A stretch of 64,000 nucleotides of DNA. Origin: Sulfitobacter sp. GTDB lineage: Bacteria > Pseudomonadota > Alphaproteobacteria > Rhodobacterales > Rhodobacteraceae. A program made the translations under genes and the position numbers. This document shows, piece after piece, positions 39,345 through 63,164 of the stretch; positions within the stretch are counted from its first letter, which is position 1; each line of letters starts with the position of its first letter. The notes beneath the pieces are model-generated. The model saw nothing but the letters and a program-made list of their open reading frames with translations. It was not told where the DNA came from and did not search any database. The DNA is taken from assembly GCA_049680295.1 (NCBI GenBank), contig JBAUHN010000355.1:8836-72835 (forward strand), in the 5' to 3' direction.

Positions 39345-39394
39345 AGGGTCGAACGGGCGCAGCCCCGGAGGCGGCGTTTCAGAGCGCCCCGCCT

Positions 39395-46439: not shown

Positions 46440-49400
46440 ATGGACGGTTCTGATCAAGATATTCCGGTAAACGACAACGACATCGCTATCGTTGGTATGG
46501 CAGCGCATCTTCCGGGTGCGCGCACCATTGGCGATTACTGGGACAACCTGCGGGGTGGCGTCGAATCGATCCGCAAACTCACCCCCGAAGAACTGCGCGC
46601 CGCCGGTGAGCCTGAACATATTTCAGGCCGTCCCGATTATGTGCCCTATGCTGCCGTGCTTGAAGGCTTTGAAACATTTGACGCCGAATTCTTTGGTTTT
46701 TCCCCCAAAGAAGCCGCGATCATGGACCCGCAGCACCGCCAGTTTCTGGAGGTCGCCTGGGCCGCGCTGGAAAACGCGGGCCACCCGCCTGAAAACACCC
46801 CCGGACCGGTGGGCGTTTTTGCCGGCTGCGGCATGGGCAGCTATTTCTATTTCAACGTCTGTTCAAACCCGGATCTGGTCGACAATGTCGGCATGTTCCT
46901 GCTGCGCCACACCGGCAACGACAAGGATTTTCTGGCCACACGTCTTAGCCACACACTGGACCTCAAAGGCCCCAGCGTGAACATGCAGACCGCCTGTTCG
47001 ACATCACTGGTGACCACCCATTATGCCTGTCAGGCGCTGATGAACGGCGAATGTGACATGGCGCTGGCGGGGGGTGTGACGATCGAATTGCCCCACGCGC
47101 GCGGCTATCTTTACAAAGAAGGCGAAGTCCTGTCGCCGGATGGTCATTGTCATGCCTTTGATCACCGCGCCCAGGGCACGGTTTTTGGATCAGGGGCGGG
47201 CGTTGTTGTGCTGCGCCGTCTCGCGGACGCGATTGCCGATGGCGATCACATCTGGGCGGTGATCAAGGGCACGGCGATCAACAATGATGGCGCCGCCAAA
47301 GCCGGGTATCTGGCGCCTTCCGTCGATGGGCAAGCCGCCGCCATTGCCGAGGCGCATATGATGGCCGGCACCCCGGCCGACACCATTGATTACATCGAAT
47401 GTCACGGCACCGGCACCTATCTGGGCGACCCGATCGAGGTTGCGGCCCTGACACAAGCCTTTGCCGAGACCACGGACGATCAGGGTTTTTGCCGGATCGG
47501 GTCGGTCAAAACCAACATTGGCCACCTTGATACGGCGGCCGGTGTCGCCAGCCTGATCAAAACCAGCCTGTCGCTGCACCACAAGCAAATCCCGCCCTCG
47601 CTGGGCTATGAGGCCCCAAACCCGTCGATTGATTTCGATGGCAGCCCCTTTGTCGTCAATGACAAGCTGACCGACTGGGCGTCGCACAAAGGTCCGCGCC
47701 GGGCCGGGGTAAATTCACTGGGTGTGGGCGGAACCAATGCCCATGTTGTCCTGCAAGAAGCGCCGATGCGCGCCCCATCAGAAGATTCCGACTGGCCGTT
47801 TCAGATCTTGACCGTCTCGGGCCGCACCAAGGCCGCTTTGGACGGCAATGCCGCAGCCCTGGCCGCCCATCTGCGCGCAAACCCTGACCAATCGCTGGCC
47901 GATATCGCCTGGACCCTCAAAGAGGGCCGTCGCGCCTTTGAAAAACGCCGGGTGATTGTGGCCGCAGACCACGCAGAGGCGGCACAGCTGCTGGAAGAAA
48001 ACGATCCGCGCCGGGTGTTCACCCATACGCTGGTCGATGACGCCCCCGAATCCGTCTTTATGTTCCCCGGTGGCGGCGCCCAATACGCCGGCATGGCCCG
48101 CGATCTTTATGAGACCGAGCCGGTGTTCCAGGAATGGATGGACCGGGGTCTCGATATTCTGCAGCCCAAGCTCGATTACGACATCCGGGCGATCTGGCTG
48201 CCGGGTGCGGCAGATCACGCCAGCGCCGAGGAACGTCTGAAAACGCCATCCGTGCAATTGCCGTTGATCATGATCGTGGAATATGCGCTGGCGCAGCTTT
48301 GGATGTCCTGGGGTGTCAAACCCGACGTGCTTGTTGGCCATTCGATGGGCGAGAACACTGCCGCGTGTGTCGCCGGTGTGATGTCGTTTGAGGATTGCAT
48401 CGGTCTGGTGCATCTGCGCGGTCAGCTGTTTGATACCGTGGCCCCCGGGGGCATGCTCAGCGTGCCCTTGCCTGCTGCTGAACTGGAACCTTTGCTGGGC
48501 GACGATCTGGATCTGGGCGCGATCAACGCGCCGGACCTCAGCGTCGCCACAGGCCCGCAGGCCGCCTTGGACGTGCTGGAGGAGGTCCTGAAAGCCCGCG
48601 AGGTCGACTGCCAGCGGATCGGCATCAATATTGCCGCCCATTCGCGCATGTTAGAGCCTATTTTGGAGCGTTTCGGCGCCTATCTGCGTTCGATCACGTT
48701 AAACGCGCCGCAAATCCCTATTGTCTCAAACCGCAGCGGGCAGATGATGACGGATGCGCAGGCCATGGACCCTGACTATTGGGTCGGCCATTTGCGTCAC
48801 ACCGTGCGCTTTGCCGATTGCATCACCACGCTTGCGACAGACGCCACCCCCCGCATCTTTATTGAGGTCGGACCGGGCAAGGCGCTGTCGTCGCTGACCG
48901 GCATGCATGACAAGGTCAGCGCCAATCAGGTCATAGGCAGCCTGCGCCATCCCGATGACACCACAGCCGATGACGCCTATTTCATGGCGATGCTGGGCCG
49001 GGTCTGGGCGGTTGGCGGTGAATTCGACTGGGCGCAGATCTGGGGCGAGGCACGGCGCAACCGTGTGCCGCTGCCGGGATACGCCTTTCAGCGCGCGCCC
49101 TATTTCATTGAACCGGGCAGCAACCAGACCCAAAGTCAGGCCCAATGGCTGACCCGTACCGATGATGTGGGCGACTGGGGCTACCGCCCGGCCTGGGTGC
49201 CGCGCTATGCCGCCTGTGATCTGGATGTCACCCATGATCTGAAAGACGCCGAGACGCAGACATGGCTGGTCTTTGAAGACAACACCGGTCTGTGTACCGG
49301 CATCTCTGAGCGCCTGCGCGGTGCGGGCCAGCGTGTGGTCACCGTCACCCCCGGCGACGCCTTTGTGAAAACCGGCGACGACAGCTATGTGATTGCCCCT

Positions 49401-52400
49401 GAACGGGGGCGCGAAAACTATGATCAGCTGATCGGTGATCTGATCGCCCAAGATAAGGCACCCACCCGCATTCTGCACGGCTGGCTGGTCACCGGGGACG
49501 AAAGCTTCCGCCCCGGCAGCAGCTTTTTCCATCGCAATCAGGAACAGGGCTTCTACAGCCTGTTGTTCCTGGGCCAGGCCATCGGCGGCGAAGATCTGGC
49601 AATGCCTGTGCATATGACGGTTCTGACATCGGGGGCCATGCAGGTCAGCAACGAGGCGCTGCGCTATCCTGATAAATCCACCGTCATGGGACCTGCACGG
49701 GTGCTGCCGCAGGAATTTCCGGGGCTCACCACAACGGTGCTTGATCTGGATCTGCCGCTGGCTGCCAAAGGCCGGCGCAAGGGTCAGATCGCGCCGCAAA
49801 TGAACCGGCTGATTGATCAGACCCTCGAAGATCTGATTGCCGCACCGGCCAATATCACCGCCGCCCTGCGCGGTGAAAAACGTTATGAACTGTCGGTGCG
49901 CAAACTGGAGATACCAGAGCCTGACAAGGGTGATTTGCCCCTGCGCGACAAAGGTGTCTATATGATCACCGGCGGCTTTGGCGGCATTGGCCTGACCATC
50001 GCCCGCGATCTGATCACCACCCATTCGGCCCGCATTGTGCTGCTGTCACGCAGCGCCATGCCGCCGCGCGATCAATGGGATCAGGTGCTGCACCAGAACG
50101 CGCCGCAAGACCCTGTTGTGCGCCGCATCCGCGCCATTCAGGACCTCGAAAACCTGGGCGGCGAAGTGCTGTGCATCGCCGCCGACGTCAGCAACGTCGA
50201 AGACATGCGCGACGCGGTGACCCAGACCCGCGACGCCTTTGGCGACATCAACGGTGTGATCCATGCCGCAGGGCTGATTGCCGATGCCCCGATCATGGGT
50301 AAATCCACCATGGAGATCGAGGACGTGCTCACGCCCAAGGTCCATGGCACCCATGTGCTGGAAAGCATCTTTCCCGATGGCACGCTGGACTGGCTGGTGC
50401 TGTTCTCGTCAACGTCAACCGTGACCACGCCCGCAGGTCAGGTCGATTATGTCGCCGCCAACGAATATCTGAATGCCTATGCCAAATCGCGCAAGGGCGA
50501 CAAAACCCGGGTGCTGGCGATCAACTGGGGGGTCTGGTCCGAGGTCGGCATGGCCGCGGATGCGATGCTGGCACGGTCCGGCAGCGCCACGCCGCCGCCT
50601 TCTGATCCGGCCCATGTCCCGATGCTGGACGCCGCCACCTTTGGCCCGGCCCATAACCGGGTCTTTACCGCCACATATACCGCCAAGGACCGCTGGTTCC
50701 TGGATGAACACCGCACCAAAGCAGGCGACGCACTGTTGCCCGGCACCGGCTATCTGGAACTGGCCGCCGAAGCGCTGGAGGCGCAGGGCGAAACCAGCCC
50801 GTTTGAAATTCGCGATCTCTATTTCCTGCGCCCGCTGGCTGTGGGCGATGACGTGGCCCAAAACATCCGTCTGCGGCTGCCGCGCAGCGATGTCGGCTAT
50901 GATTTCTCGGTGCAAAGCAGCGATACGGACGCCTTTGAGATCAACGCCCAGGCCAGCCTGTCCCTGCTGCCGATGGAGACCCCCGAGGCGGTGGATATCG
51001 CGGCCCTGCGCGCGCGCTGCACAGTGGCGGCCACTGCGGATGCAGGTGCCGCCATCACCTCGCGGCAAGAAGAACATCTGAACTTTGGCCCGCGCTGGCG
51101 GGTGCTGATGTCGACCGCTTATGGCGACAACGAAGGTCTGGCCGATCTGAAACTGTCAGATGCCTATCAGGGCGATCTGGACGATGGCTATGTGCTGCAC
51201 CCCGGTCTGATGGATCTGGCCACCGGCTGGGCGATGGATCTGATCCGCGACTACCAGCCCACCAACCTGTGGGTACCGGTGTCTTATGGCTCTGTCAAAG
51301 TCTACCGCGATCTGCCGCGCGAGGTGGTCAGCTGGGTCCGCAATGCCGGTGACAACCACGCCGGCGGCCAGATGGCCAGCTTTGATGTCACCATCATGGC
51401 CCCCGATGGCACCGTCTGCGTCGAGATCAAAGGCTTCTCGATCCGGCGCATGGACAGCGTTGCCGATTTCGCCAAAACCGAAAACGCCGCCGTCGCACAG
51501 ATAGACGAGGACGCACCGCGCCCCTTGTCACCTGCCGAAGAACGGCTGCGGCACAATATCTCGCAGGGCATCAAACCGCATGAAGGCTCGGATGCGTTTT
51601 TCCGCGCGCTGGCCTCATCGGCGCCACAGGTCATCGTGTCTTCGCTGGATCTGGATTTGCTGACCGCGCAAGTCGCCGAAAGCTCGGCGGTGCCGGAAAG
51701 CTCCGAGCAGACCTTCCAGCGGCCGGAACTGGATTCCGAATACGCCGCCCCCGCCAATGACATCGAGGAAAAACTGGCCAGCATCTGGCAGGATTTGCTG
51801 GGTGTCGATCAGGTCGGCGTCGAAGACAGCTTTTTCGACCTCGGGGGCCATTCGCTGATCGCGGTGCGGCTGTTTGCGCAGGTGCGCAAGGCCTATAGTG
51901 TCGATTTTCCGATCTCGGTGCTGTTTGAAGCGCCAACCATCCGCAAATGCGCTGAAATGATCGCCGCACGCGGTGTGGCCACATCCTCGGATGCCGGTGA
52001 CAATGCCACCGCAGCGCCCGAAACCGCCACCCGCCGCTTTACCCATCTGGTGCCGATGCACGCAGGCGAGGCCGGACCGCAAACGCCGTTCTTTCTGGTT
52101 GCGGGCATGTTTGGCAACGTGCTGAACCTGCGCCATCTGGCGCATCTTCTGGGCGCGGACCGGCCATTCTACGGGTTGCAGGCGCGCGGGCTTTACGGCG
52201 ATGAGGCGCCCCATACCTCCCTGGTTGAGGCGGCCACCGATTACATCGCTGAAATCCGTGCCGTGCAGCCGCATGGGCCTTATATGGTTGGCGGATTTTC
52301 CGGCGGCGGCATCACCGCCTATGAGATCGCACAACAATTGACAGCCATGGGCGAAGAAGTATCGGTTCTGGTGATGCTCGACACACCGCTGCCGGTGGCA

Positions 52401-52913
52401 GAGCCTGTGACCCTGCGTGACCGGCTTATGATCCAATGGATTGAGCTGCGCAAAAAAGGCCTGAACTATCCGCTGCAATGGGCCAGAAACCGCATTGCAT
52501 GGGAACTCTCCAAGCGCCGCGGTGACGCGGACGGCGATGACATGCCCGCCAATCAGTTCCACAACACCGAAATCGAAGCCGCGTTCATGGAAAGCGTGCG
52601 GTCTTACCAGGTCAAACCCTGGAACGGCCCATTGGCAATGATGCGCCCGCCCTTGGTTGGCACCTGGGAAGTCGCCCCAGGCCGCTGGATCAATGATGAA
52701 CGTGACTATGTGCTGCATGACAATGGCTGGACCGGCTGGGCGCCCAAAATCGAAGTGTTCGAAGTGCCCGGAGACCACGATTCCATGGTGTTAGAGCCGA
52801 ATGTACGGGTGCTTGGCGCCCGGATGAAGCGCTGTATTGAGGCGGCAGGTCGCAGCCCCGGCGTCGCACCCGTCTCCGCAGGCCTGCGCACCATTAAAAA
52901 GGCAGCAGAATAA
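46440..52913 (+). CDS. Type I polyketide synthase, KS-AT-KR-DH-T-TE
   Basis: KS: TACSTSLV, ECHGTGT, KTNIGHLDTAAG. AT: GHSMGE..R..IAAHS. KR: GGFGGIGL, HAAGLIAD, S..YVAANEYL. DH: HRTKAGDALLP and HPGLMD. Carrier: FFDLGGHSL. TE: GGFSGGG, LDTP, GDHDSM. Confidence 0.92.
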   Translation: MDGSDQDIPVNDNDIAIVGMAAHLPGARTIGDYWDNLRGGVESIRKLTPEELRAAGEPEHISGRPDYVPYAAVLEGFETFDAEFFGFSPKEAAIMDPQHRQFLEVAWAALENAGHPPENTPGPVGVFAGCGMGSYFYFNVCSNPDLVDNVGMFLLRHTGNDKDFLATRLSHTLDLKGPSVNMQTACSTSLVTTHYACQALMNGECDMALAGGVTIELPHARGYLYKEGEVLSPDGHCHAFDHRAQGTVFGSGAGVVVLRRLADAIADGDHIWAVIKGTAINNDGAAKAGYLAPSVDGQAAAIAEAHMMAGTPADTIDYIECHGTGTYLGDPIEVAALTQAFAETTDDQGFCRIGSVKTNIGHLDTAAGVASLIKTSLSLHHKQIPPSLGYEAPNPSIDFDGSPFVVNDKLTDWASHKGPRRAGVNSLGVGGTNAHVVLQEAPMRAPSEDSDWPFQILTVSGRTKAALDGNAAALAAHLRANPDQSLADIAWTLKEGRRAFEKRRVIVAADHAEAAQLLEENDPRRVFTHTLVDDAPESVFMFPGGGAQYAGMARDLYETEPVFQEWMDRGLDILQPKLDYDIRAIWLPGAADHASAEERLKTPSVQLPLIMIVEYALAQLWMSWGVKPDVLVGHSMGENTAACVAGVMSFEDCIGLVHLRGQLFDTVAPGGMLSVPLPAAELEPLLGDDLDLGAINAPDLSVATGPQAALDVLEEVLKAREVDCQRIGINIAAHSRMLEPILERFGAYLRSITLNAPQIPIVSNRSGQMMTDAQAMDPDYWVGHLRHTVRFADCITTLATDATPRIFIEVGPGKALSSLTGMHDKVSANQVIGSLRHPDDTTADDAYFMAMLGRVWAVGGEFDWAQIWGEARRNRVPLPGYAFQRAPYFIEPGSNQTQSQAQWLTRTDDVGDWGYRPAWVPRYAACDLDVTHDLKDAETQTWLVFEDNTGLCTGISERLRGAGQRVVTVTPGDAFVKTGDDSYVIAPERGRENYDQLIGDLIAQDKAPTRILHGWLVTGDESFRPGSSFFHRNQEQGFYSLLFLGQAIGGEDLAMPVHMTVLTSGAMQVSNEALRYPDKSTVMGPARVLPQEFPGLTTTVLDLDLPLAAKGRRKGQIAPQMNRLIDQTLEDLIAAPANITAALRGEKRYELSVRKLEIPEPDKGDLPLRDKGVYMITGGFGGIGLTIARDLITTHSARIVLLSRSAMPPRDQWDQVLHQNAPQDPVVRRIRAIQDLENLGGEVLCIAADVSNVEDMRDAVTQTRDAFGDINGVIHAAGLIADAPIMGKSTMEIEDVLTPKVHGTHVLESIFPDGTLDWLVLFSSTSTVTTPAGQVDYVAANEYLNAYAKSRKGDKTRVLAINWGVWSEVGMAADAMLARSGSATPPPSDPAHVPMLDAATFGPAHNRVFTATYTAKDRWFLDEHRTKAGDALLPGTGYLELAAEALEAQGETSPFEIRDLYFLRPLAVGDDVAQNIRLRLPRSDVGYDFSVQSSDTDAFEINAQASLSLLPMETPEAVDIAALRARCTVAATADAGAAITSRQEEHLNFGPRWRVLMSTAYGDNEGLADLKLSDAYQGDLDDGYVLHPGLMDLATGWAMDLIRDYQPTNLWVPVSYGSVKVYRDLPREVVSWVRNAGDNHAGGQMASFDVTIMAPDGTVCVEIKGFSIRRMDSVADFAKTENAAVAQIDEDAPRPLSPAEERLRHNISQGIKPHEGSDAFFRALASSAPQVIVSSLDLDLLTAQVAESSAVPESSEQTFQRPELDSEYAAPANDIEEKLASIWQDLLGVDQVGVEDSFFDLGGHSLIAVRLFAQVRKAYSVDFPISVLFEAPTIRKCAEMIAARGVATSSDAGDNATAAPETATRRFTHLVPMHAGEAGPQTPFFLVAGMFGNVLNLRHLAHLLGADRPFYGLQARGLYGDEAPHTSLVEAATDYIAEIRAVQPHGPYMVGGFSGGGITAYEIAQQLTAMGEEVSVLVMLDTPLPVAEPVTLRDRLMIQWIELRKKGLNYPLQWARNRIAWELSKRRGDADGDDMPANQFHNTEIEAAFMESVRSYQVKPWNGPLAMMRPPLVGTWEVAPGRWINDERDYVLHDNGWTGWAPKIEVFEVPGDHDSMVLEPNVRVLGARMKRCIEAAGRSPGVAPVSAGLRTIKKAAE

Positions 52914-52915
52914 CG

Positions 52916-53929
52916 ATGTCTCACCCCACAGTTCTGACCATCATCCTGAACTATAAAACCGCCCCGATGACCCAGAAATCCATCGCCGCAGCGCGGGCCG
53001 CGATGGCCGGGTTATCCGGTGAAATCACCGTCGTTGATAACGCCTCACAGGACGGATCCTTCGAGACGCTGTCGGCGTATGTGGCAGGCCTTGGCCCCGA
53101 TCCGGACATCCCGGTCCGGGTCCTGGCATCGGGCCGCAATGGCGGCTTTGGGGCGGGCAATAACGTCGGCATCCGCGCCGGGCTGAAGGATGGATCGAAA
53201 CCCGATTACGTCTATGTGCTGAACTCTGACGCCTTCCCGGACAAAGACGCCATTCGTCTGCTGCTGGCGCATCTGCAAACCCACCCCGACGCGGGTTTTG
53301 CCGGCAGTTACATCCATGGCGAAGACGGCGACACCCATCTGACGACATTCCGGTTTCCCTCCGTGTTCAGCGAATTCGAAGGGGCGATCCAGTTTGGCCC
53401 GGTCAGCCGTCTGCTGGCCAAATATGCCGTGCCGGTCAAAACCCCGGACACGGTCACACCCGTCGACTGGCTGGCAGGCGCCAGCATCATGATGCGCCAA
53501 AGCGTGCTGGATGAAATTGGCATCTTTGACGAAGAATTCTTTCTCTATTTTGAGGAAACGGACCTGTGCCGCCGCGCCCATCTGGCCGGGCATCAGACCG
53601 TGTTTGTGCCGCAAAGCCGTGTGGCCCATATCGGGTCGGTGTCCACGGGCATGAAAACATGGGGGCGGGTGCCGGGCTACTGGTTTGCCTCGCGGCGCTA
53701 TTATTTCACCAAGAACCACGGCCGGCTTTATGCGGGTCTGGCCACGCTGGCGCATCTGGCGGGGGGCGGGCTGCACTGGCTGCGCTGTCTGGTGACGCGC
53801 CGCGCCAACAACACGCCGTCGCATTTCCTGCGCACCTTGGCCTGGCATGATCTGACCGCCCGGCGCCGCGAGAATCCAAAACCGCAACCTGCGCTGACAT
53901 CCACGCCCCATCCAACGACCGGAGAATAA
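52916..53929 (+). CDS. Glycosyltransferase family 2 (embedded between the PKS and NRPS genes)
   Basis: LTIILNYKTAPMT..VVDNASQDGS..LNSDA..FLYFEETDLCRR. Starts 2 nt after the PKS stop and ends 4 nt before the NRPS start. Confidence 0.85.
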   Translation: MSHPTVLTIILNYKTAPMTQKSIAAARAAMAGLSGEITVVDNASQDGSFETLSAYVAGLGPDPDIPVRVLASGRNGGFGAGNNVGIRAGLKDGSKPDYVYVLNSDAFPDKDAIRLLLAHLQTHPDAGFAGSYIHGEDGDTHLTTFRFPSVFSEFEGAIQFGPVSRLLAKYAVPVKTPDTVTPVDWLAGASIMMRQSVLDEIGIFDEEFFLYFEETDLCRRAHLAGHQTVFVPQSRVAHIGSVSTGMKTWGRVPGYWFASRRYYFTKNHGRLYAGLATLAHLAGGGLHWLRCLVTRRANNTPSHFLRTLAWHDLTARRRENPKPQPALTSTPHPTTGE

Positions 53930-53933
53930 CCCC

Positions 53934-56900
53934 ATGTCCGATTTCAATTCCATCGTCATCGGCAACGAATCCCTTGTGATTCAATGCGGTGACATGCTGT
54001 TGCAGGGCGGGCATAAGATCAGCGCCCTTGTCACCCGCAACCCGGACGTGCGCGCCTGGGGCGAAAAACAGGGTCTAAGCGTGCATAGGCCGGGGTCTGA
54101 TCTGGCGGATCGGCTGGGGGATACCCCCTGTGACTGGCTGTTTTCCATCGCCAACCTCGATATTATTCCGCAGGCCCTGCTGGACCGCGCCGCCAAAGGG
54201 GCGATCAACTTTCACGATGGGCCCCTGCCGCGTTATGCCGGTCTGAACGCACCGGCCTGGGCGCTGATCAACGGCGAGGCGCAGCACGGCATCACCTGGC
54301 ACCTGATCGAAGGCGGCATCGACGAAGGCGATATCATCGAGCAACGCAGCTTTGACATCGCCCCCCATGACACTGCCCTGACGATGAACACCAAATGCTA
54401 TGTCGCGGCGATCGAAAGTTTCGGCGCGGTGATATCGGCCGTGGCAGATGGTCTGCCCGGCCGCCGCGCTCAGGACCTGTCCCAGCGCAGCTATTTCGCC
54501 AAAGACGCCCGGCCCGCCGCTGCCGCACGGCTGGATTTCAATACATCCGCCAAAGATCTGGTGGCCTTGGTGCGGGGCCTTGATCATGGCGACTACTGGA
54601 ACCCGCTGTCTTGCCCCAAGATCGAAGCGAATGGCCAAATCTGGCTGATCGGCGCCGCCTCTGTCGCCGAAGACAGCCCCGATGCGGCCCCCGGTACGGT
54701 CCTTGCCAGCGACGGCGACACACTGACTGTTGCCACCGGTGCAGGCGCCATTGCGCTGACAAATATCAGACCCTGCACAGGCGATGCGGACCTGCCACAG
54801 GCAGGCGATGTCCTCTCCTCGCCCTCGGCAGCCGAGGCAACGGCCCTTGATGCCGTCCTGGCCAAAACCCTGCGCGCAGAACCCTATTGGCGCAAACGTC
54901 TTGAAACCCTGACCCCGGCGCAGGCCCCTTTGATGCAGGCCACGGATGCCAAGGGCGTCGAGACGCGCAAATTAAATCTGCCCGCGGCACTAGGCGCGGA
55001 TGATCAGGCCGCAGTGCTGGCCACATTGGTCCTGCGCCTTGGCGATGACAGCACCATTGATCTGGCCTGGCAGGACGCAGGAACCACCCATAACGCGCCA
55101 AAACCCTATGTCAGAGACTGGGTGCCGCTGCGGTTTGAGACAAAAGACAGCTTTGACGCCGCCAGCACCGCACTCGCCGATGAGATCGCAACCGCGCGCA
55201 GCAAGGGCGGTTTTGCCTGCGATCTGCCCGCGCGTATTCCGGGTCTGGATGCTGCGCAAATGCCGCAGGTCGGGGTGACATCCGGCCGTGAAATCATTTC
55301 CGGCACGGTTCTGACCCTTGCCACCGGTGACGCCCCCGCCCTGATCGCGGATGCCGCACAGATGCCCGCCGCCCTGCTGGATCTGATCGCAGCGCGTCTT
55401 GAAACCCTTGGCACAGCCCTTGCCATGCCTGACGCGCGCGGCCAGGCGCTTAGTGCCCTGCCGATCCTGCCGGATGCAGAACGCCAGCACATCCTGCAGG
55501 GCCTGAACGACACAAAAACCGCCTACCCGGCAGATGCCTGCATTCATCAGCTGTTTGAAGCCCAGGTCGCCCGCACGCCGGACGCCGAAGCACTGGTGTT
55601 TGAAGGCGAGGTGCTAAGCTATGCCGCGCTGGATGCGCGCGCCAATCAGGTGGCCCATGTGTTGCGCGATATGGGCGTCGGCCCCGGCAAAACCGTCGGG
55701 CTGCATTTGCGCCGCTCGACCGAATTGCTGGTGGGCGCCCTGGCGATCTTTAAGGCCGGGGGCGCTTATGTGCCGCTGGACCCAGGCTTCCCCTCTGATC
55801 GCATTGCCTACTACATCGAAGACAGCGCCGCACCGGTGATCATCACCCAGAGCGATCTGGCAGCGGGCCTGCCCGCGCATAGTGCCAAAGTGCTTGTGTT
55901 AGAGAGTGATCCGCGCATTGCCGCCGCCGCCACAGACACGCCCGACAGCGGTGTTTCCGCCTCTGATCTGGCCTATCTGATCTACACTTCCGGCTCGACC
56001 GGCAAGCCCAAGGGCGTCATGGTTGAACACCGCAATGTATCGAATTTCTTTACCGGCATGGACGCCCATATCAGCCATGACCCTGCGGGCGTCTGGCTGG
56101 CCGTGACCAGCCTGTCGTTTGATATCTCGGTGCTGGAACTGTTCTGGACCCTTGCGCGGGGTTTCAAACTGGTGCTTAGCAGCGATGAAGACCGCGGTCT
56201 GATCTCAAACGGGGGGCTGCAGGTATCCGACACGCCGATGGATTTCAGTCTCTATTACTGGGGGAATGACGATGCTGTCGGCACCGAGAAATACAAATTG
56301 CTGCTGGAAGGCGCGAAATTCGCCGATGACCACGGCTTTTGCGCTGTCTGGACGCCTGAACGGCATTTCCACGCCTTTGGCGGGCCTTATCCCAACCCGT
56401 CCGTGACCGGTGCGGCGGTGGCTGCCGTGACCAAAAATCTGTCGGTGCGCGCCGGTAGTATCGTCGCCCCCCTGCACCATCCTGCGCGCATTGCCGAAGA
56501 ATGGGCGGTGATTGACAATCTGACGGGGGGCCGTGTCGGGCTGGCCATGGCCTCGGGCTGGCAGCCCGATGATTTTGTGCTGCGCCCCGAAAACACGCCG
56601 CCACACAATAAAACCGCCCTGATAGAGACGATCAAGACCGTGCGCCGGCTTTGGGCGGGCGAAGCGGTTGAATTCCCCCGCCAGGATGGCGCGATGCACG
56701 CGGTTGTCACCCAGCCGCGCCCGATTTCGGACAAAATGCCGATGTGGGTCACCTCTGCCGGCAACCCCGCCACCTGGGTTGAGGCGGGCGAATTGGGCGC
56801 CAATGTTCTGACCCACCTTCTGGGCCAAAGCGTGGATGAGGTCGCCGAAAAGATCAAAATCTACCACAAGGCGCTGCGCAGCGCCGGGCATGATCCGGCC

Positions 56901-58562
56901 GACCACACCGTCACGCTGATGCTGCACACCTATATCGCCGACAGCCGCGATGCCGCGCGCGACGTCGCCCGCGAGCCGATGAAAAGCTATCTGCGCAGTG
57001 CCGCCGGGCTGATCAAACAATACGCCTGGGCCTTTCCCGCCTTTAAGCGCCCTGAGGGGGCCAAAAACGCCTTTGATCTTGATCTGGGCAGTCTGGAACC
57101 GGACGAGCTGGAAGGCATCCTCGATTTCGCCTTTGAGCGGTATTTCAACGATTCCGGCATGTTTGGGACTGTTTCGGACTGTGTGGAACGGGTCGAAGCG
57201 CTGAAAAAAATCGGCGTTGGCGAAGTCGCCTGCCTGATCGAATATGGCATCGCCACCGACACCGTTCTTGAGGGTCTGCGCCCGCTGGCCGAGGTGTTGC
57301 GCCAGTCCAATCAGGCCACTGAACTGGACGCGGATGATTTCTCCATCGCCGCCCAGATCATCCGCCACAAGGTCACGCATATGCAGTGCACCCCCTCAAT
57401 GGCGCAGATGATCACCATGAACGACGAGGCGCGCAGCGCTTTGGCGCGGGTGCCGCATGTGCTGGTTGGCGGCGAGGCACTGTCGGGTGCGCTGGCCCAG
57501 GAATTGCACCAGATCACCGGCAAGCCGGTCCAGAATATGTATGGTCCCACGGAAACCACGATCTGGTCCACAACCGAACGGACAACAGGCGGCGAGGGTG
57601 TGATCAACATCGGCAAACCCATCGCCAATACCCAGGTCTATGTGCTGGACGAGGACCGCCAGCCCGTGCCCATCGGCACCGCAGCCGAGCTTTATATCGG
57701 CGGCGATGGGGTGACGCGCGGCTATTGGCAGCGCCCTGATTTGACAGACGAAAGATTCGTCGCTGATCCCTTTATAGAGCCTGATATGGCCGCCCCCGGC
57801 GGCGCGCGCATGTACCGCACCGGCGATCTGGTGCGCTGGCGCAGCGATGGGCGGCTTGATTTTCTGGGCCGCATTGACCATCAGGTCAAACTGCGCGGCT
57901 ACCGGATTGAACTGGGCGAAATTGAAGCGGCAATTGACGGCTTTGCAGGCGTGCGCCAATCGGTGGTGATGCCCCGCGAAGACACCCCCGGCCTGACCCA
58001 GCTGGTGGCCTATGTGACCACCACCGCCCCGGTGGCCGAGGCAGCGTTGCGCAAACATATCGGCGCCGGACTGCCTGACTATATGGTACCCGCACGTGTT
58101 GTAACGCTGGACAGCTTTCCGCTGACCCCCAACAAAAAGATCGACCGCAAGGCGCTGCCGGCCCCCATGGCCGTGCAGGCTGCACCCCCCGCGACAGCCA
58201 GCGCCCCGGCCCCGGACGGATCATCGGCCCAGAGGATCGCCGACATCTGGTCACAGATATTGGGCGTCGCCAACATCGGTGCGCGCGATAACTTCTTTGA
58301 TCTGGGCGGGCATTCACTGCTGGCGGTACAGGCCCACCGTGAAATACGCACCACCCTGTCGGTGCCAAAGCTCAGCATCACGGACATTTTCCGCTTTCCA
58401 ACCCTGCAGGCCCTTGCCGCCCAGGTGGATGCGAAATCCGGCGTGTCTGAACCTGCGTCCAAACCCGATGACGCCCCCGCCGTGGCCGAACGGGCCGCAG
58501 CCCGCAGCGATGCCATGTCGCGCCGCAAGGAAATGAGGGCGAAACGTCACGCCCGCTCATGA
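53934..58562 (+). CDS. NRPS starter module: formyltransferase-like domain, C-domain C-lobe remnant, A domain (Gly code) interrupted by a luciferase-like monooxygenase, and T domain
   Basis: F: INFHDGPLPRYAG + GGIDEGDII. A: LSYAALDARAN (A1), LKAGGAYVPLD-type (A2), YLIYTSGSTGKPKG (A3), FDISVLE (A4), then a 360-aa LLM insert, then NMYGPTETT (A5), GELYIGG..GYW (A6), YRTGD (A7), GRIDHQVKLRGYRIELGEIE (A8), LPDYMVP (A9), NKKIDRK (A10). T: FFDLGGHSL. Confidence 0.92.
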   Translation: MSDFNSIVIGNESLVIQCGDMLLQGGHKISALVTRNPDVRAWGEKQGLSVHRPGSDLADRLGDTPCDWLFSIANLDIIPQALLDRAAKGAINFHDGPLPRYAGLNAPAWALINGEAQHGITWHLIEGGIDEGDIIEQRSFDIAPHDTALTMNTKCYVAAIESFGAVISAVADGLPGRRAQDLSQRSYFAKDARPAAAARLDFNTSAKDLVALVRGLDHGDYWNPLSCPKIEANGQIWLIGAASVAEDSPDAAPGTVLASDGDTLTVATGAGAIALTNIRPCTGDADLPQAGDVLSSPSAAEATALDAVLAKTLRAEPYWRKRLETLTPAQAPLMQATDAKGVETRKLNLPAALGADDQAAVLATLVLRLGDDSTIDLAWQDAGTTHNAPKPYVRDWVPLRFETKDSFDAASTALADEIATARSKGGFACDLPARIPGLDAAQMPQVGVTSGREIISGTVLTLATGDAPALIADAAQMPAALLDLIAARLETLGTALAMPDARGQALSALPILPDAERQHILQGLNDTKTAYPADACIHQLFEAQVARTPDAEALVFEGEVLSYAALDARANQVAHVLRDMGVGPGKTVGLHLRRSTELLVGALAIFKAGGAYVPLDPGFPSDRIAYYIEDSAAPVIITQSDLAAGLPAHSAKVLVLESDPRIAAAATDTPDSGVSASDLAYLIYTSGSTGKPKGVMVEHRNVSNFFTGMDAHISHDPAGVWLAVTSLSFDISVLELFWTLARGFKLVLSSDEDRGLISNGGLQVSDTPMDFSLYYWGNDDAVGTEKYKLLLEGAKFADDHGFCAVWTPERHFHAFGGPYPNPSVTGAAVAAVTKNLSVRAGSIVAPLHHPARIAEEWAVIDNLTGGRVGLAMASGWQPDDFVLRPENTPPHNKTALIETIKTVRRLWAGEAVEFPRQDGAMHAVVTQPRPISDKMPMWVTSAGNPATWVEAGELGANVLTHLLGQSVDEVAEKIKIYHKALRSAGHDPADHTVTLMLHTYIADSRDAARDVAREPMKSYLRSAAGLIKQYAWAFPAFKRPEGAKNAFDLDLGSLEPDELEGILDFAFERYFNDSGMFGTVSDCVERVEALKKIGVGEVACLIEYGIATDTVLEGLRPLAEVLRQSNQATELDADDFSIAAQIIRHKVTHMQCTPSMAQMITMNDEARSALARVPHVLVGGEALSGALAQELHQITGKPVQNMYGPTETTIWSTTERTTGGEGVINIGKPIANTQVYVLDEDRQPVPIGTAAELYIGGDGVTRGYWQRPDLTDERFVADPFIEPDMAAPGGARMYRTGDLVRWRSDGRLDFLGRIDHQVKLRGYRIELGEIEAAIDGFAGVRQSVVMPREDTPGLTQLVAYVTTTAPVAEAALRKHIGAGLPDYMVPARVVTLDSFPLTPNKKIDRKALPAPMAVQAAPPATASAPAPDGSSAQRIADIWSQILGVANIGARDNFFDLGGHSLLAVQAHREIRTTLSVPKLSITDIFRFPTLQALAAQVDAKSGVSEPASKPDDAPAVAERAAARSDAMSRRKEMRAKRHARS

Positions 58563-59254
58563 CCCCGGTTCCCGGGTTGGAAGCGGCCCTGCGCAGCCAG
58601 CTGGGCGGTCAGATCTCGGTGGCTTTGGCAGACCCCAAAGCCCCAACCGGCAGATTGTTCCCCGCTGAAGCGGCCGCCATGGCAGCGGCGACGCCAAAAC
58701 GCCTGTCGGAGTTTACCGCCGGACGCGGCGCGGCGCGGCGCGCGCTGGCCGCCATCGGCGTGGACCCTCAGCCCATCCTGCACGCCCCCGACCGTGCACC
58801 GATCTGGCCCGCGGGTGTGACCGGCAGCATCACCCATTGCGACATTTTATGTCTCTCTGCCGTGGCCAGGACCGACACCATCCGCAGCCTTGGCATTGAT
58901 CTGGAACCCGACGCAGACCTGCCCCGCGATCTGGAAGACATCGTCTGTACATCGGCCGAGCGGGGCTGGCTGGACAGCCACCCCGCAGACAGACGCGGGA
59001 CACTGGCCAAGCTGATCTTTTGCGCCAAGGAAAGTGCCTATAAGGCGCAATATCCCCTGACACAGAGCCTGTTTGGCTTTGAGACCTTTGAAATTACCCT
59101 TGATCCGGAGGCGGGGCAATTCACTGCAACCTTCCAAAACCCGGTCGGCGGGTTTGCAGCCGGTGACGTGCTACAGGGGCGGTTTCTGCGGCAACAGGGT
59201 CTGATTTTCACCAGCGTGGTGATCCCACACTCTGACAGCCCGGTGTTCGGCTGA
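58559..59254 (+). CDS. Sfp/EntD-type 4'-phosphopantetheinyl transferase
   Basis: WPAGVTGSITHC, SLGIDLEP and FCAKESAYKA motifs. ATGA overlap with the NRPS stop. Confidence 0.88.
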   Translation: MTPVPGLEAALRSQLGGQISVALADPKAPTGRLFPAEAAAMAAATPKRLSEFTAGRGAARRALAAIGVDPQPILHAPDRAPIWPAGVTGSITHCDILCLSAVARTDTIRSLGIDLEPDADLPRDLEDIVCTSAERGWLDSHPADRRGTLAKLIFCAKESAYKAQYPLTQSLFGFETFEITLDPEAGQFTATFQNPVGGFAAGDVLQGRFLRQQGLIFTSVVIPHSDSPVFG

Positions 59255-59366
59255 CGCAAACGACACAAACCTGCGGCTCAATCTGTTCCAGACGGCCATT
59301 TTAACTGTTTGTTAAGACCTTGAGACCCTGGTGTTGCGCACGAGGTTTCACAGGGTAAATGCAAAC

Positions 59367-60878
59367 ATGCGCGACATAAAAGCAGCGGTTTTTATCATGG
59401 CCTGTCTGTTCCATATTGCCCCTGTGGAACAGGCCCGCGCCCAGGAAGGCGCGCTGGATCTGGAACTCAGCACCACATACGAGCGGTGGACGTTACCCGG
59501 TAACGAAAAGATGGGCATGGCCAATGTCAGGCTGTCGGAATTTTCCGGGGAGTATTTCAATTATGGCATTGAATCCTACACCGCAGTGGCGGGGGAGCGT
59601 GGCGGCTTCATCACAATCGGTGCGCATGCTGGATTGCGCTTTCCCGTCAGCCAGAGACTGTCACTGGACAGTGGGCTTTCTGTGGGGGCCGGGGGCGGGC
59701 GTGGAGGGTATTTCCTAAGTGGCGGCGGCCTGATGCTGCGTGGGCACGCAGGTCTGAAATACGCGGCTCCCATCGGGCAGTTGGGTCTGGGTGTCAGCTA
59801 TGTAAGCTTTCCTGAAAATGGGGATATAGACAGTGCGCAAGCCTATATTTCCTATTCTCTGCCCTTCTCGGTGGCGGGCAGACCTGGCCTGAATTTCGGC
59901 ACCGCTGCGCAGGCTGGCAATGCAATTCCGCGCAGAAAAGATTCCAAAACACATCAGTTTTCACTGGTGACGCGGTCGGTGATGGCCAACAGACAGGTTC
60001 TGAAAGACGCCAGCGCAACGGTCTTTCAGGAAGATTTCAAAATGCTGGGGGTCAGGTGGCGGACGCATTTGACTGACACATGGATCGCCCAGTTTGAAAC
60101 AGTCGGAGGCGGCGGAGGCAACAGCGCGGGGTACATGCATCTTCTGGCCGGGTTGGGTGCGCGGCAATCCATCACCAGAAACCTGTCGGTCTATGAAACC
60201 CTGTCCATCGGGGGCGGTGGCGGCGGCGGCGTGCCCACGGGGGGCGGGTTTTTGGTAGATGCCGCCATCGGCGTTCAGTATCTGTTTCCCAATTCTGCCT
60301 TTATCGATGTGTCCGCGTCCAAATTTCTTGCGCCTTCAACAGCGTTTTCAAACACCACTTTAAATCTGAACTTTGGCTACCAGTTGGGCACAGCCAGACC
60401 CGCGGATACGGGCAGTGTGGACAGGCGCCTTGCCTATCCGGTCAGAATTCGGACCGTCCAGCAGAACTATAAAGGCACACATCCAAACTGGCGAAACCGG
60501 CCCGCGCAGCCCGTCGATAACCTTGGGTTTCAGATTGACTATTTTATGTCTCCCAACATGTTTCTCACCGGGCAGGCCATTGGCGCATGGGGCGGAGACG
60601 CCGGGGCCTATATGACGGGTCTGGTCGGCGCAGGTGTGCATAAAGATTTGATCGGCAACCTTTTTGTCGAAGCAGAGGGTCTTGTTGGTGTTGCAGGCGG
60701 CGGCGGTCTGACCGTCGGTAGCGGCGCCGTGGGACAAGTGAATTTGGGTCTTGGATATCAATTTACACCCCGTTTAAGTGCGATGGTCAGCACCGGAAAA
60801 ATCAAATCTTTTGACGGGGACTTTGAAGCAGATGTTCTGGGTGTCTCGCTCAACTACGATTTCACCCTGTTCTTTTAA
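59367..60878 (+). CDS. Predicted outer-membrane beta-barrel protein with three internal repeats and poly-Gly tracts
   Basis: Signal peptide ..APVEQARA/QEG, alternating-hydrophobic strands, terminal ..LNYDFTLFF (C-terminal Phe beta-signal), and Gly runs GAGGGRGG, GGGGG, GGGGGGG, AGGGG. Confidence 0.65.
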   Translation: MRDIKAAVFIMACLFHIAPVEQARAQEGALDLELSTTYERWTLPGNEKMGMANVRLSEFSGEYFNYGIESYTAVAGERGGFITIGAHAGLRFPVSQRLSLDSGLSVGAGGGRGGYFLSGGGLMLRGHAGLKYAAPIGQLGLGVSYVSFPENGDIDSAQAYISYSLPFSVAGRPGLNFGTAAQAGNAIPRRKDSKTHQFSLVTRSVMANRQVLKDASATVFQEDFKMLGVRWRTHLTDTWIAQFETVGGGGGNSAGYMHLLAGLGARQSITRNLSVYETLSIGGGGGGGVPTGGGFLVDAAIGVQYLFPNSAFIDVSASKFLAPSTAFSNTTLNLNFGYQLGTARPADTGSVDRRLAYPVRIRTVQQNYKGTHPNWRNRPAQPVDNLGFQIDYFMSPNMFLTGQAIGAWGGDAGAYMTGLVGAGVHKDLIGNLFVEAEGLVGVAGGGGLTVGSGAVGQVNLGLGYQFTPRLSAMVSTGKIKSFDGDFEADVLGVSLNYDFTLFF

Positions 60879-60935
60879 ATGTAAGAATTGGCGCGTCTGG
60901 GGTTCGCCCCTCCGAACAGCAGGCAAAACCAAAGG

Positions 60936-62117
60936 TCAGCCTTGCCTGAGTGTTGCGGCCAGATGATCCATGCGGCGCCCGAACTCTGTTTGGAAATCGC
61001 GCGCCTGCGCAAAGGCCACCGATGCCGTGCAGGCCGCGACGATCTGGTCGCGATCCGCATTCAGCGTGGCGATGGTGTCGGCCAAAGCCCCCACATCCCC
61101 CAGTGGCACCGCCCAGCCCGCCTGTGCCTGCGCCTGCACCGCAGACCACATCTGATTGGCATAGCCGACAATGGCCAGCCCGCAGCCCATGCTTTCCAGA
61201 TAGGTGCACGACGGGTCCGACTGGCGATGACAACTCAGAAAGATATCCGCGCAGGTCCGGCTAACCGGCACCAAGACGTCCTCGAAATCCACCGGATCAT
61301 GCAGAGTCACGTGATCGCCCAGATTTTTGCTGTTGATCTGATCTGCGATCTCGTCGCGCAGGCTGCCCGCGCCGTAGATATCCAGCTGAAAGTTGATGCC
61401 CTTCCCCTGCAGGCGCTGTGCAACCGGGATCAGGTCCTGCGCGCCTTTCATCGGTTCCAGCCGGCCTGAATGGATCAGCCGCAGCGGGGAACCTGATTGC
61501 AAATGCGCCGCGCGGCGCTGCATTTCATCATCCGTGACAAACAAATCCGGCTTCATCCGGTTGTCGAGATACATCATCGTATTGGCGTTTAGCCCTTTGT
61601 AGGCTCTGTATGCGGGGTAGCCATTGACCTGAACGCCCTGGGCGTGCCGAAAGGCGCGGCGGCGGCGGATTTCATGCCATGTGTTCCAGCCCATCGAATA
61701 GATCCGGCGCGCAAGGCTTTTGTCTTTGCTCAGCCATGCGATCTGCAATCGGGCCTGCAAGGTATATTCAATCGTATAGACAACCTTTGCCCCGACCTGC
61801 GCGCCAAGGGCTGCGATGTGCAGACCTTCATGGTCATCGGCGGCACAAAACACCACATCATAGCCTTGCAGCATGTCGCGGGTCACGGGCTGCCCCGGAT
61901 CCAGCACTGTCAGGCCAAATTCCAGATCCGCAGGGTTTTGCGTGGTCTGAAACGGGATATGGGTCGCCCCGCCGTGCAGAATGCAATCCACCTTGCCCTC
62001 CCACAGGGCGCAATGCTGGCGCATGCCCTCGACAAACTTGGCGTCCAGAATCAGGGCGTCCCCCGCAGGCATGACCGGAGCGGTGGCAATCATCAACAGG
62101 TGGGGCATTTTATTCAT
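60936..62117 (-). CDS. Glycosyltransferase family 4 (GT-B)
   Basis: RLIHSGRLEPMKG..DIYGAGSLRDEI..LSCHRQSDPSCTYLESMGCGLAIVGY GT1/GT4 C-terminal domain. Confidence 0.8.
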   Translation of the reverse strand: MNKMPHLLMIATAPVMPAGDALILDAKFVEGMRQHCALWEGKVDCILHGGATHIPFQTTQNPADLEFGLTVLDPGQPVTRDMLQGYDVVFCAADDHEGLHIAALGAQVGAKVVYTIEYTLQARLQIAWLSKDKSLARRIYSMGWNTWHEIRRRRAFRHAQGVQVNGYPAYRAYKGLNANTMMYLDNRMKPDLFVTDDEMQRRAAHLQSGSPLRLIHSGRLEPMKGAQDLIPVAQRLQGKGINFQLDIYGAGSLRDEIADQINSKNLGDHVTLHDPVDFEDVLVPVSRTCADIFLSCHRQSDPSCTYLESMGCGLAIVGYANQMWSAVQAQAQAGWAVPLGDVGALADTIATLNADRDQIVAACTASVAFAQARDFQTEFGRRMDHLAATLRQG

Positions 62118-62231: not shown

Positions 62232-63164
62232 TTGCTGAGACGTCTCAAACGCCATAGCCCCGCTTTTCTTTTATTGCTGCTTGCCGCCTGTGGCAGCCTG
62301 ACCCGCTGTAGCGGGCCCAAACCACTGGATCAGGCCGCGTTTGACGCGCTTTATGCGACCCCGCAGGCCGTTGGCGCTGGTCCGCAAAAAACCTACCACA
62401 TTGGCCATAGTCTGGTCGGGCGTGACATGCCGGCAATGCTGGCGCAATTGGCCGGAGACGGGCATGGCTATGACAGCCAGCTTGGCTGGGGCAGTCCGCT
62501 GAAAGCGCATTGGGACCCGGATGAGGAAATCAACGGCTTTGACGTTGAAAACAACCACCCGCGTTACCGCGACGCAATGGAGGCGGTGACATCGGGGGAG
62601 TACGACGCGCTGGTGCTGACCGAAATGGTCGAAATCCGCGACGCGATCAAATATTTCAACTCAGGCGATTACCTGCACCGCTGGGCGCAGGCCGGATGGG
62701 GGGCAAACCCCGAAATGCGGGTCTATTTATACGAAACCTGGCATCCGCTGGACGATCCCGAGGGCTGGCTGGAGCGCATAGACAGCGATCTGGCCCGCTA
62801 TTGGGAGGGCGACATCCTGCGCCGCGCGCTGGCCTATGATGACATGCCGCATCCGGTCTATGTGATCCCGGCCGGACAGGTGCTGGCCGCTTTTGTCCGC
62901 GCGATTGAGGCGACCCCCGTCGATGGCCTGTCTGCGCGGGCCGATCTTTTCAGCGATGACATCCACATCAACGATCTGGGGGCCTATCTGGTGGCGCTGA
63001 CGCATTATGCGGTGCTTTATCAGAAATCCCCCGTTGGGTTGCCTCATGCGCTCAACCGTGCCGACGGAACCCCGGCCACAGCCCCCGGTGAAGGCACCGC
63101 ACGATTGATGCAGGAAACGGTCTGGCGCGTGGTGCAGGCCTATCCGCCCGCAGGGCTGCCCTAG
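62232..63164 (+). CDS. Lipoprotein, SGNH-like hydrolase candidate (paralog 2)
   Basis: TTG start, lipobox LLLAAC, YHIGHSLVG, YDALVLTE, DDIHINDLGAYLVALTHYAVLY. Paralog of 45235-46203. Confidence 0.7.
   Translation: MLRRLKRHSPAFLLLLLAACGSLTRCSGPKPLDQAAFDALYATPQAVGAGPQKTYHIGHSLVGRDMPAMLAQLAGDGHGYDSQLGWGSPLKAHWDPDEEINGFDVENNHPRYRDAMEAVTSGEYDALVLTEMVEIRDAIKYFNSGDYLHRWAQAGWGANPEMRVYLYETWHPLDDPEGWLERIDSDLARYWEGDILRRALAYDDMPHPVYVIPAGQVLAAFVRAIEATPVDGLSARADLFSDDIHINDLGAYLVALTHYAVLYQKSPVGLPHALNRADGTPATAPGEGTARLMQETVWRVVQAYPPAGLP

Follow-up and report, generated by a model that had tools for sequence, protein, structure and literature searches.

A luciferase-like monooxygenase domain interrupts the glycine adenylation domain of a formyltransferase-bearing NRPS loading module in Sulfitobacter

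We analysed a stretch of 64,000 nucleotides of Sulfitobacter sp. DNA (contig JBAUHN010000355.1; hereafter the window, in which position 1 is the first letter), where the gene for a non-ribosomal peptide synthetase (NRPS) loading module carries a luciferase-like monooxygenase (LLM) within its glycine-activating adenylation (A) domain. The insertion of the LLM between motifs A4 and A5 was confirmed, with a family match far beyond chance, and by its sequence the insert is an intact monooxygenase dependent on flavin mononucleotide (FMN), a member of the natural-product Ox/MOx (monooxygenase) family with predicted use of FMN and O2. By analogy with characterised relatives, we put at roughly 0.6 the probability that this domain acts in cis as an FMNH2-dependent alpha-hydroxylase on N-formylglycine held by the thiolation (T) domain of the module (N-formylglycyl-S-T), and that the product primes a partner polyketide synthase (PKS) encoded in the same operon. 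The elements are known singly, namely an A-embedded MOx acting on glycine, a starter of formyltransferase (F), glycine A and T domains feeding a PKS, and an orphan biosynthetic cluster of Roseobacter. The coordinates of all features are collected in Table 1.

Results and Discussion

The A domain is interrupted by an intact LLM

The region 56235-57308 (+) contains no stop codons and shares its frame with the open reading frame (ORF) 53934..58562; the peptides MDFSLYYWGNDD, FCAVWTPERHFHAFGG and VAPLHHPARIAEEWAVIDNLTGGRVGLAMASGW are all present in its translation, with the A-domain motif FDISVLE lying upstream and NMYGPTETT downstream. A first-pass annotation, made from the letters alone, had assigned an LLM or bacterial-luciferase identity to this region and had proposed a search with family models. 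That search bore out the assignment: the insert matched NCBIfam TIGR04020, the MupA/Atu3671 family of FMN-dependent LLMs, with 477 bits (E 3e-143; model positions 1-340 of 341; curated cutoff 244.45 bits), and Pfam Bac_luciferase with 157 bits (cutoff 27.9 bits). The NCBI annotation of homologous proteins already names an LLM of the MupA/Atu3671 family.

The proposed insertion point was equally upheld, since A4 (FDISV) lies at aa 729, the LLM occupies aa 771-1121 and A5 (NMYGPTE) lies at aa 1201; A3 was located at aa 679, A7 at 1294, A8 at 1312 and A10 at 1400. The Pfam AMP-binding model matched in two pieces (aa 541-754 and about 1134-1345), and alignment with uninterrupted A domains, in which the flanks are contiguous, delimited an extra block of 378 aa (aa 755-1132). 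In an AlphaFold2 (AF2) model built for aa 531-1415 (mean pLDDT 77), whole A-domain structures superposed across the insert (8WWW, TMt 0.82; GrsA 1AMU, 0.73-0.78), and the insert itself superposed on the Ox domain of PuwE (6KET) with a TMt of 0.89, an rmsd of 3.8 Å and 43% identity. This Ox domain is also the nearest solved structure by sequence (342 bits), and the (beta/alpha)8 LLM fold modelled for the insert matches that of this solved family member. The motifs common to PuwE and the window LLM family (WxPERHF, GS and ASGW) were invariant, and in a comparison of 119 close orthologues the LLM was the best-conserved part of the protein, with a mean identity of 0.76 and 167 of 351 residues invariant.

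The specificity code of the A domain reads DILQLGMIWK, in agreement with the glycine specificity given by the first-pass annotation; this code is identical to the classical glycine code at 9 of 10 positions, the assignment following the Stachelhaus code. The pattern DILQxGxxWK was carried by every one of the 119 A(LLM) domains examined (97 from F-type modules, 16 from C-type modules, which have a condensation (C) domain, and 6 from fragments).

The F and A(LLM) combination is widespread

The window protein was 100% identical to a protein from a Sulfitobacter sp. metagenome-assembled genome. Its top 120 homologues (59-80% identity) belong to the Roseobacter group or to Betaproteobacteria, Acidovorax and Hydrogenophaga among the latter; the LLM-interrupted A domain was found in all 120 and the F domain in 119, the lone protein not counted with an F domain being 1314 aa long and spanning only 85% of the query. 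When the LLM alone was searched against 1.84 billion cluster representatives at 50% identity, 1965 matches were obtained at E <= 1e-30, and among the best 150 of these about 105 were F-...-A(LLM)-T proteins of about 1.5 kaa, while about 30 were C-A(LLM)-T proteins with or without a thioesterase (TE) or a further C domain. A scan of one genome per species recovered the full-length architecture of about 1540 aa in at least 592 species genomes (a lower bound) from about six phyla, including Rhodobacterales, Rhizobiales, Betaproteobacteria, Myxococcota, Phycisphaerae, Chloroflexi and Gemmatimonadota.

These data show that F + A(MOx) is the dominant context of the window LLM clade and is not rare, contrary to the impression that the first-pass annotation had conveyed. 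Its remark that the combination had not been described did hold, in that full-text literature searches returned nothing relevant on F + MOx/LLM modules or on N-formyl-hydroxyglycine. F domains in general have been called very scarcely observed (PMC8949500). C-type LLMs were 51-55% identical to the window LLM, within the range of distant F-type LLMs (48-77%), and in a neighbour-joining tree built from 151 LLM domains the two types of module did not fall into separate groups.

Two multi-domain PKS/NRPS proteins, P0124 and P0126, contain two LLM domains each. One of these follows an aminotransferase, as in PuwE, and the other lies late in an A domain, within its C-terminal subdomain and not between A4 and A5; this late position is a second insertion site of the LLM family.

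The module has the parts of a loader and the remains of a condensation domain

The N-terminal formyltransferase recognised by the first-pass annotation was recovered with both Formyl_trans_N and Formyl_trans_C. Its triad N92, H94 and D130 was invariant among 24 diverse homologues with 39-63% identity to the window protein, N92/H94 and D130 aligning to the N-x-H and D positions of Met-tRNA formyltransferase (FMT). Across the same homologues D730 and K1402 of the A domain were conserved and S1461 of the T domain was nearly invariant. Against the Protein Data Bank (PDB), the F domain scored 80 bits with Escherichia coli FMT (1FMT) and 61 bits with ArnA, and merely 28-30 bits with the F domain of LgrA; it is probably an independent fusion relative to that of LgrA.

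About 230 residues separate the F and A domains, and in the window protein itself this region has no Pfam match. A profile of 16 homologues matched the C-terminal lobe of a C domain in the PDB, namely residues 195-482 of McyB (8HLK; E 4.5e-29), and Pfam Condensation matched the region in 9 of the 16 profile members. The N-terminal lobe of a C domain, which bears the HHxxxDG motif, is absent from the window protein, its place being occupied by the F domain; the C-lobe remnant was the worst-conserved part of the protein (mean identity 0.36 across the 119 close orthologues). The position of this remnant, after F and before A, speaks for a C-A(MOx)-T ancestor in which an FMT-like domain would have taken the place of the catalytic C half. 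The remnant had been overlooked in the first-pass annotation, as had the polysaccharide-locus context described below. Pfam and NCBIfam, together with the homologue profile, revealed neither a TE nor an active C domain in the window NRPS; given that both the HHxxxDG lobe and a TE are missing, the protein can only load, in line with the starter role it had been assigned.

The loader and a PKS form a minimal conserved unit

The NRPS gene belongs to an operon (46440..59254) of PKS, family 2 glycosyltransferase (GT2), NRPS and Sfp-type phosphopantetheinyl transferase (PPTase) genes, separated by 3-4 bp spacers or overlapping. The ketosynthase (KS), acyltransferase (AT), ketoreductase (KR), dehydratase (DH) and TE motifs of the PKS are intact, and its carrier resembles a peptidyl carrier protein (PCP), with LGGHSL rather than a motif of the acyl carrier protein (ACP) type. 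A KS-first PKS in the same operon is a candidate downstream acceptor for a module in the starter position. The PKS domain order KS-AT-KR-DH-T-TE is unusual, being nearer to that of iterative synthases of the polyunsaturated fatty acid (PUFA) or enediyne type than to that of modular PKSs.

Among 82 related loci, the NRPS co-occurred with the PKS in 70, with the GT2 in 67 and with the PPTase in 65, and its pairing with the PKS crosses phyla. The order PKS-GT2-NRPS-PPTase is repeated in dozens of Rhodobacterales loci; the order NRPS then PKS, with gaps of 17-25 bp, was found in Phycisphaerae, Chloroflexi, Gemmatimonadota and one deltaproteobacterium. In Ca. Leptofilum (Chloroflexi; locus L080, 9992-21180) the NRPS and PKS pair has neither GT2 nor PPTase and lies between housekeeping genes for orotidine monophosphate (OMP) decarboxylase and SRP54. 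The short-gapped NRPS-PKS order in distant phyla, together with this stand-alone Chloroflexi pair, indicates that the NRPS and the PKS are the minimal conserved unit. In a locus from Gemmatimonadota (L082, 9986-22117) the PKS is shorter (1922 aa), probably has no TE and is followed by two alpha/beta-hydrolase genes.

The C-terminal tail of the NRPS was net positive, with a motif resembling DAMSRRRAMRARR, in 80 of 80 related loci, and the N-terminal leader of the PKS (46440-46490 in the window) was short and acidic in 63 of 66 loci. Their sequences suggest that tail and leader are a docking pair, which would work in the NRPS-to-PKS direction.

The window operon is the conserved orphan four-gene PKS/NRPS cluster of Roseobacter, the recognition of which is reportedly due to Martens et al. 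in 2007. The cluster has been reported in 28 of 57 Roseobacter genomes (PMC4337385, PMC5014874), and literature searches for its product returned only statements that the product is unknown. The two cluster papers make no mention of the F domain, the C-lobe remnant, the A-embedded LLM or a spread beyond Rhodobacterales, and we found no account in the searchable literature of a dead C-lobe, an FMT-like F origin, a cross-phylum spread or a polysaccharide context for this NRPS. Few orphan biosynthetic clusters of marine Roseobacter are as conserved as this one; these bacteria are abundant and often associated with algae and animals.

Known systems provide a model for in-cis hydroxylation

The closest functional parallels to the window module come from MOx-interrupted glycine modules, which were likened to it by architecture and glycine code only. 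In MtaG, MelG and CtaG (myxothiazol, melithiazol and cystothiazole), as in the window protein, a luciferase-like MOx is embedded in a glycine A domain. Their chemistry is the alpha-hydroxylation of an N-acyl-glycyl thioester, which we propose likewise for the window module, and MtaG and MelG are reported to hydroxylate the glycine C-alpha (PMC10204066). Such modules stand at the end of their assembly lines, have a complete C domain and a TE, and turn a long acyl-glycyl chain into a terminal amide through carbinolamide cleavage, whereas the window module is a starter with an F domain, a dead C-lobe only and no TE. A second case is SolF of solanimycin biosynthesis in Dickeya solani, in which a flavin monooxygenase (FMO) is embedded in a C-A(Gly, FMO)-T module that yields alpha-hydroxyglycine; this residue is kept in solanimycin B, so that a carbinolamide can survive and pass downstream (PMC10204066). 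SolF differs from the window module in its mid-line elongation role, its active C domain and its lack of an F domain; what the window module lacks relative to all such MOx-interrupted glycine modules is a preceding active C domain.

The first-pass annotation had named MtaG, MelG and CtaG as the only precedent for this insertion, a view that does not survive SolF (PMC10204066) and the many C-A(LLM)-T(-TE) modules in databases. An MtaG-like C-A(LLM)-T-TE layout with the same glycine code was present among the nearest relatives of the window LLM (P0151), and a homologue search seeded with P0151, together with a cluster look-up of the C-type representatives, returned only unnamed or generically named proteins.

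Loaders in which a formyltransferase, a glycine A domain and a carrier hand N-formylglycine to a PKS are established, namely PtxE, OzmO and the conglobatin and rhizopodin loaders (PMC5764310, PMC4979870). These resemble the window module as starters but have no MOx reported in the A domain, act with a cyclodehydratase that leads to an oxazole, and serve large modular PKSs; the window module has a single KS-AT-KR-DH-T-TE partner and no cyclodehydratase in its conserved core. Over the full length of the protein, the best match in the PDB was the F-A-T initiation module LgrA of linear gramicidin (6MFZ and others), which serves as structural paradigm when an aminoacyl-S-T is formylated. The window protein differs from it in the C-lobe remnant between F and A, in its specificity for glycine rather than valine, in the absence of a downstream C domain and in the LLM insert. 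PuwE Ox (6KET), MicD of microginin biosynthesis, RmyA of ralsolamycin biosynthesis and MupA belong to the same LLM family and are carrier-protein-dependent alpha-hydroxylases; to the PuwE Ox domain has been attributed the 2-hydroxyl on an acyl chain bound to a carrier (PMC4219810). Unlike the window domain, PuwE-type Ox domains are free-standing or lie between an aminotransferase and a C domain, and they use beta-amino or polyketide acyl substrates.

On this basis we propose the following sequence of events. The A domain, the presence and code of which were observed, would activate glycine and load it onto the T domain, and the FMT/ArnA-like F domain would N-formylate Gly-S-T with N10-formyl-tetrahydrofolate. 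The formyl group may thereby serve as a stand-in for the upstream peptidyl chain that a starter lacks, giving the N-acyl-glycyl thioester that is the substrate of all known A-embedded MOx domains. With O2 and FMNH2 from a cellular flavin reductase, the MOx would then hydroxylate C-alpha to N-formyl-2-hydroxyglycyl-S-T, as suggested by MtaG, MelG and SolF and by PuwE/MupA-type enzymes. From the architecture and gene order, this starter would pass to the KS of the PKS for extension with malonate, reduction, dehydration and release by the TE, and the genomic context suggests glycosylation of the product by the GT2 as a probable next step, after which it would become part of, or be attached to, a surface polysaccharide or glycoconjugate of the Wzx/Wzy type. 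The carbinolamide might either be retained, as in solanimycin B, and perhaps glycosylated by the GT2, or collapse to formamide and a glyoxylyl thioester. Both a glyoxylyl thioester and a hydroxyl handle for glycosylation had been put forward as speculative outcomes in the first-pass annotation.

Several points weigh against the proposed in-cis hydroxylation of N-formylglycine. Other reactions also occur within TIGR04020; for example, polyketide thioesters are hydroxylated by enzymes of the MupA type, and a Favorskii-type step has been proposed. His44 and Arg107 of LuxA correspond in the alignment to Arg810 and Ser874 of the window LLM family, and because both are replaced the flavin contacts are not readable from luciferase; they match PuwE instead. 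We thus rejected a set of flavin-binding residues deduced from bacterial luciferase and regard PuwE as the proper reference. The F domain resembles its counterpart in LgrA less than it does FMT, ArnA and sugar N-formyltransferases, and its acceptor is for this reason assumed.

The substitutions relative to the LuxA active site are also the only observation in favour of the LLM being an inactive evolutionary relic or a purely structural element, which we find hardly credible for the most conserved region of the protein, matched by its family model at full length, sharing the family motifs with the crystallised PuwE Ox and kept across about six phyla.

An alternative which we consider unlikely is that hydroxylation is a cleavage device, N-formyl-2-hydroxyglycyl-S-T breaking down to formamide and glyoxylyl-S-T, so that the glyoxylyl (2-oxoacetyl) group primes the PKS. 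The carbinolamide of alpha-hydroxyglycine is cleaved in MtaG and MelG (PMC10204066), as in the amide-forming step of myxothiazol biosynthesis, and the C-lobe remnant shows descent from a C-A(MOx)-T ancestor; a formyl group acting as a disposable, activating N-acyl group would moreover account for F and MOx always travelling together. On the other hand, the retention of alpha-hydroxyglycine in solanimycin B shows that carbinolamide collapse is not obligatory (PMC10204066), and the expenditure of ATP and formyl-tetrahydrofolate on glyoxylate, an ordinary metabolite, seems wasteful.

It is improbable that the LLM instead acts, in trans or in cis, on a polyketide thioester bound to the PKS, as a MupA- or PuwE-like alpha-hydroxylase for which the A domain is a mere scaffold. 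The A4-A5 insertion is strictly coupled to the glycine code in all 119 A(LLM) domains, including those of C-type modules that are not beside a PKS. MupA does act on acyl chains and not on glycine, and the NRPS and PKS are presumably docked. PuwE Ox, the nearest solved relative, likewise acts on an acyl chain (PMC4219810), but in the characterised cases an embedded MOx acts on the glycine of its own module (PMC10204066), as in the in-cis hydroxylation that we favour.

The loader and PKS usually sit in surface-polysaccharide loci

Of 64 long loci, 55 had within 10 kb one or more genes for Wzx, Wzz, WecG, Wzy, a BY-kinase or an initiating transferase, and the NRPS and PKS pair usually sits in polysaccharide loci of the Wzx/Wzy type. 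The window itself encodes a Wzy_C protein, a GT4, an AT3-SGNH protein, two GT2 genes, a sulfotransferase and a trio of outer-membrane efflux protein (OEP), HlyD and ABC genes. Both nearby glycosyltransferases noted in the first-pass annotation were found, the GT2 on the (+) strand within the operon and the GT4 on the (-) strand beyond it. A kinship with the capsule PKS RkpA of Sinorhizobium was set aside, the RkpA system having to our knowledge no NRPS partner.

Two paralogous lipoproteins that flank the cluster, u310 and u329, have no Pfam family, and the 2473 homologues of these proteins are all labelled 'hypothetical'. A homologue of u310 comes after the PPTase in about 25 of the 82 loci. 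Foldseek matched the AF2 model of u310 (pLDDT 91) to the DUF4886 structure 4I8I (E 9e-8), to GDSL and carbohydrate esterases and to a lipopolysaccharide (LPS) O-acetyltransferase in its periplasmic domain (6SE1), and for u310 and u329 an SGNH fold is predicted, G58-H59-S60 and D242..H245 being invariant.

The polysaccharide setting of the 55 loci, the association of periplasmic SGNH-fold lipoproteins with the cluster and the kinship of the F domain with FMT, ArnA and sugar N-formyltransferases are what could be expected if the module were no PKS starter at all. The module would then transfer N-formyl(hydroxy)glycine to a sugar or polysaccharide, or its F domain would formylate an amino sugar as ArnA does, with the PKS making a separate lipid part. 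We regard this as decidedly improbable for an NRPS that has no release domain, that in distant lineages precedes the PKS gene with gaps of 17-25 bp and that forms a minimal unit with the PKS even where no glycosyltransferase or polysaccharide gene is adjacent, as in L080.

A wider reading, which starts from the loader as a PKS starter, is offered tentatively, and we lean against it as a whole. Loader and PKS would form a phylum-spanning two-enzyme machine making a short polyketide primed with N-formyl-alpha-hydroxyglycine or a glyoxylyl unit, which would become a covalent substituent, primer or anchor of Wzx/Wzy-type surface polysaccharides, the formyl group standing in for the usual N-acyl group and enabling an MtaG-type MOx to operate in a starter. 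If this were true, it would be the first NRPS/PKS-built decoration of a polysaccharide, and the loader would be the most widespread F-domain NRPS known, in contrast to the scarcity reported for such domains (PMC8949500).

Two NRPS devices that are rare, the formylation domain and the flavin monooxygenase embedded in an A domain, come together in the loader, which offers NRPS enzymology a small, single-module system for the study of an A-embedded MOx at work. The proposed N-formyl-2-hydroxyglycyl or glyoxylyl starter is a lead for a product search, and cell-surface glycoconjugates, rather than diffusible antibiotics, are the place we would suggest for it. The module is a well-posed entry to an ecologically widespread orphan pathway and brings no surprising new principle yet.

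Table 1. Features of the loading module, its operon and associated genes, with positions in the window.
Feature	Position	Strand	Basis
NRPS loading-module gene, 1542 aa, F - C-lobe remnant - A(LLM) - T - basic tail	53934..58562	+	ORF translation; Pfam and NCBIfam domains
Formyltransferase domain, aa 1-295, N-terminal catalytic and C-terminal subdomains, FMT/ArnA-like	53934..54818	+	Pfam Formyl_trans_N 63.6 bits, Formyl_trans_C 28.5 bits
C-terminal lobe remnant of a condensation domain and C-A linker, aa ~310-530, without the HHxxxDG N-lobe	54861..55523	+	Homologue profile vs McyB 8HLK
A domain, N-terminal part, aa 531-760, motifs A1-A4	55524..56213	+	Pfam AMP-binding; motif positions
Luciferase-like FMN-dependent monooxygenase (MOx/Ox) domain, aa 771-1121, in A4-A5 loop	56244..57296	+	TIGR04020 477 bits; PuwE Ox 6KET
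A domain, C-terminal part, aa 1134-1415, motifs A5-A10, specificity-code positions 278-517	57333..58178	+	TIGR01733, AMP-binding_C
Thiolation (PCP) domain, aa 1433-1497, Ser1461 in LGGHS	58230..58424	+	Pfam PP-binding 48 bits
Basic C-terminal tail (..DAMSRRKEMRAKRHARS), candidate docking element	58434..58559	+	Net charge, motif DAMSRRRAMRARR
Partner type I PKS, 2157 aa, KS-AT-KR-DH-T(PCP-like)-TE	46440..52913	+	Pfam; active-site motifs
GT2 glycosyltransferase between PKS and NRPS	52916..53929	+	Pfam Glycos_transf_2
Sfp-type phosphopantetheinyl transferase, start overlapping the NRPS stop by 4 bases	58559..59254	+	Pfam 4PPT_N, ACPS
GT4 (GT1-fold) glycosyltransferase, second of the two glycosyltransferases noted earlier	60936..62117	-	Pfam Glycos_transf_1; NCBIfam EpsE-like 72 bits
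Lipoprotein u310, predicted SGNH fold, frequent fifth cluster gene	62232..63164	+	Homologue after PPTase; AF2 and Foldseek
SGNH-like lipoprotein u329, u310 paralogue just upstream of PKS	45214..46203	+	BLASTP 33% identity, E 1e-29

Other genes of the window

The region 20091-34974 encodes a Wzy_C membrane protein, a GT4, a CHASE-domain histidine kinase, an AT3-SGNH acyltransferase and a short-chain dehydrogenase/reductase (SDR), and also a FAD-binding oxidase, a GT2, a sulfotransferase and a further GT2; it may be a locus for a sulfated or acylated polysaccharide with a functional link to the NRPS/PKS operon. Just upstream of the cluster, 36528-45055 (-) encodes a TolC-like OEP, an HlyD-family protein and an ABC exporter (membrane and ATPase components), a set that is like those for type I secretion or efflux and may export the cluster product. 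Directly after the PPTase gene, 59331-60878 (+) encodes a glycine-rich protein of 515 aa with a signal peptide and the C-terminus ...FTLFF, which looks like an outer-membrane beta-barrel.

Arg-rich ORFs lie antisense to, or overlap, real genes at 56205-57380 (-; 391 aa), opposite the LLM, at 60888-61469 (+; 193 aa) and at 37947-39401 (-; 484 aa). Pfam and NCBIfam gave no match for the ORFs 59331..60878, 60888..61469 and 37947..39401. The three Arg-rich ORFs were rejected as most likely spurious, having no family match and lying in GC-rich DNA.

Finally, 10717-17476 encodes a tripartite ATP-independent periplasmic (TRAP) transporter (DctM, DctP), an extradiol-dioxygenase-like protein, a FAD monooxygenase, a hydrolase of the FAA family and an IclR regulator; this is an aromatic-acid catabolic operon, unconnected to the NRPS.

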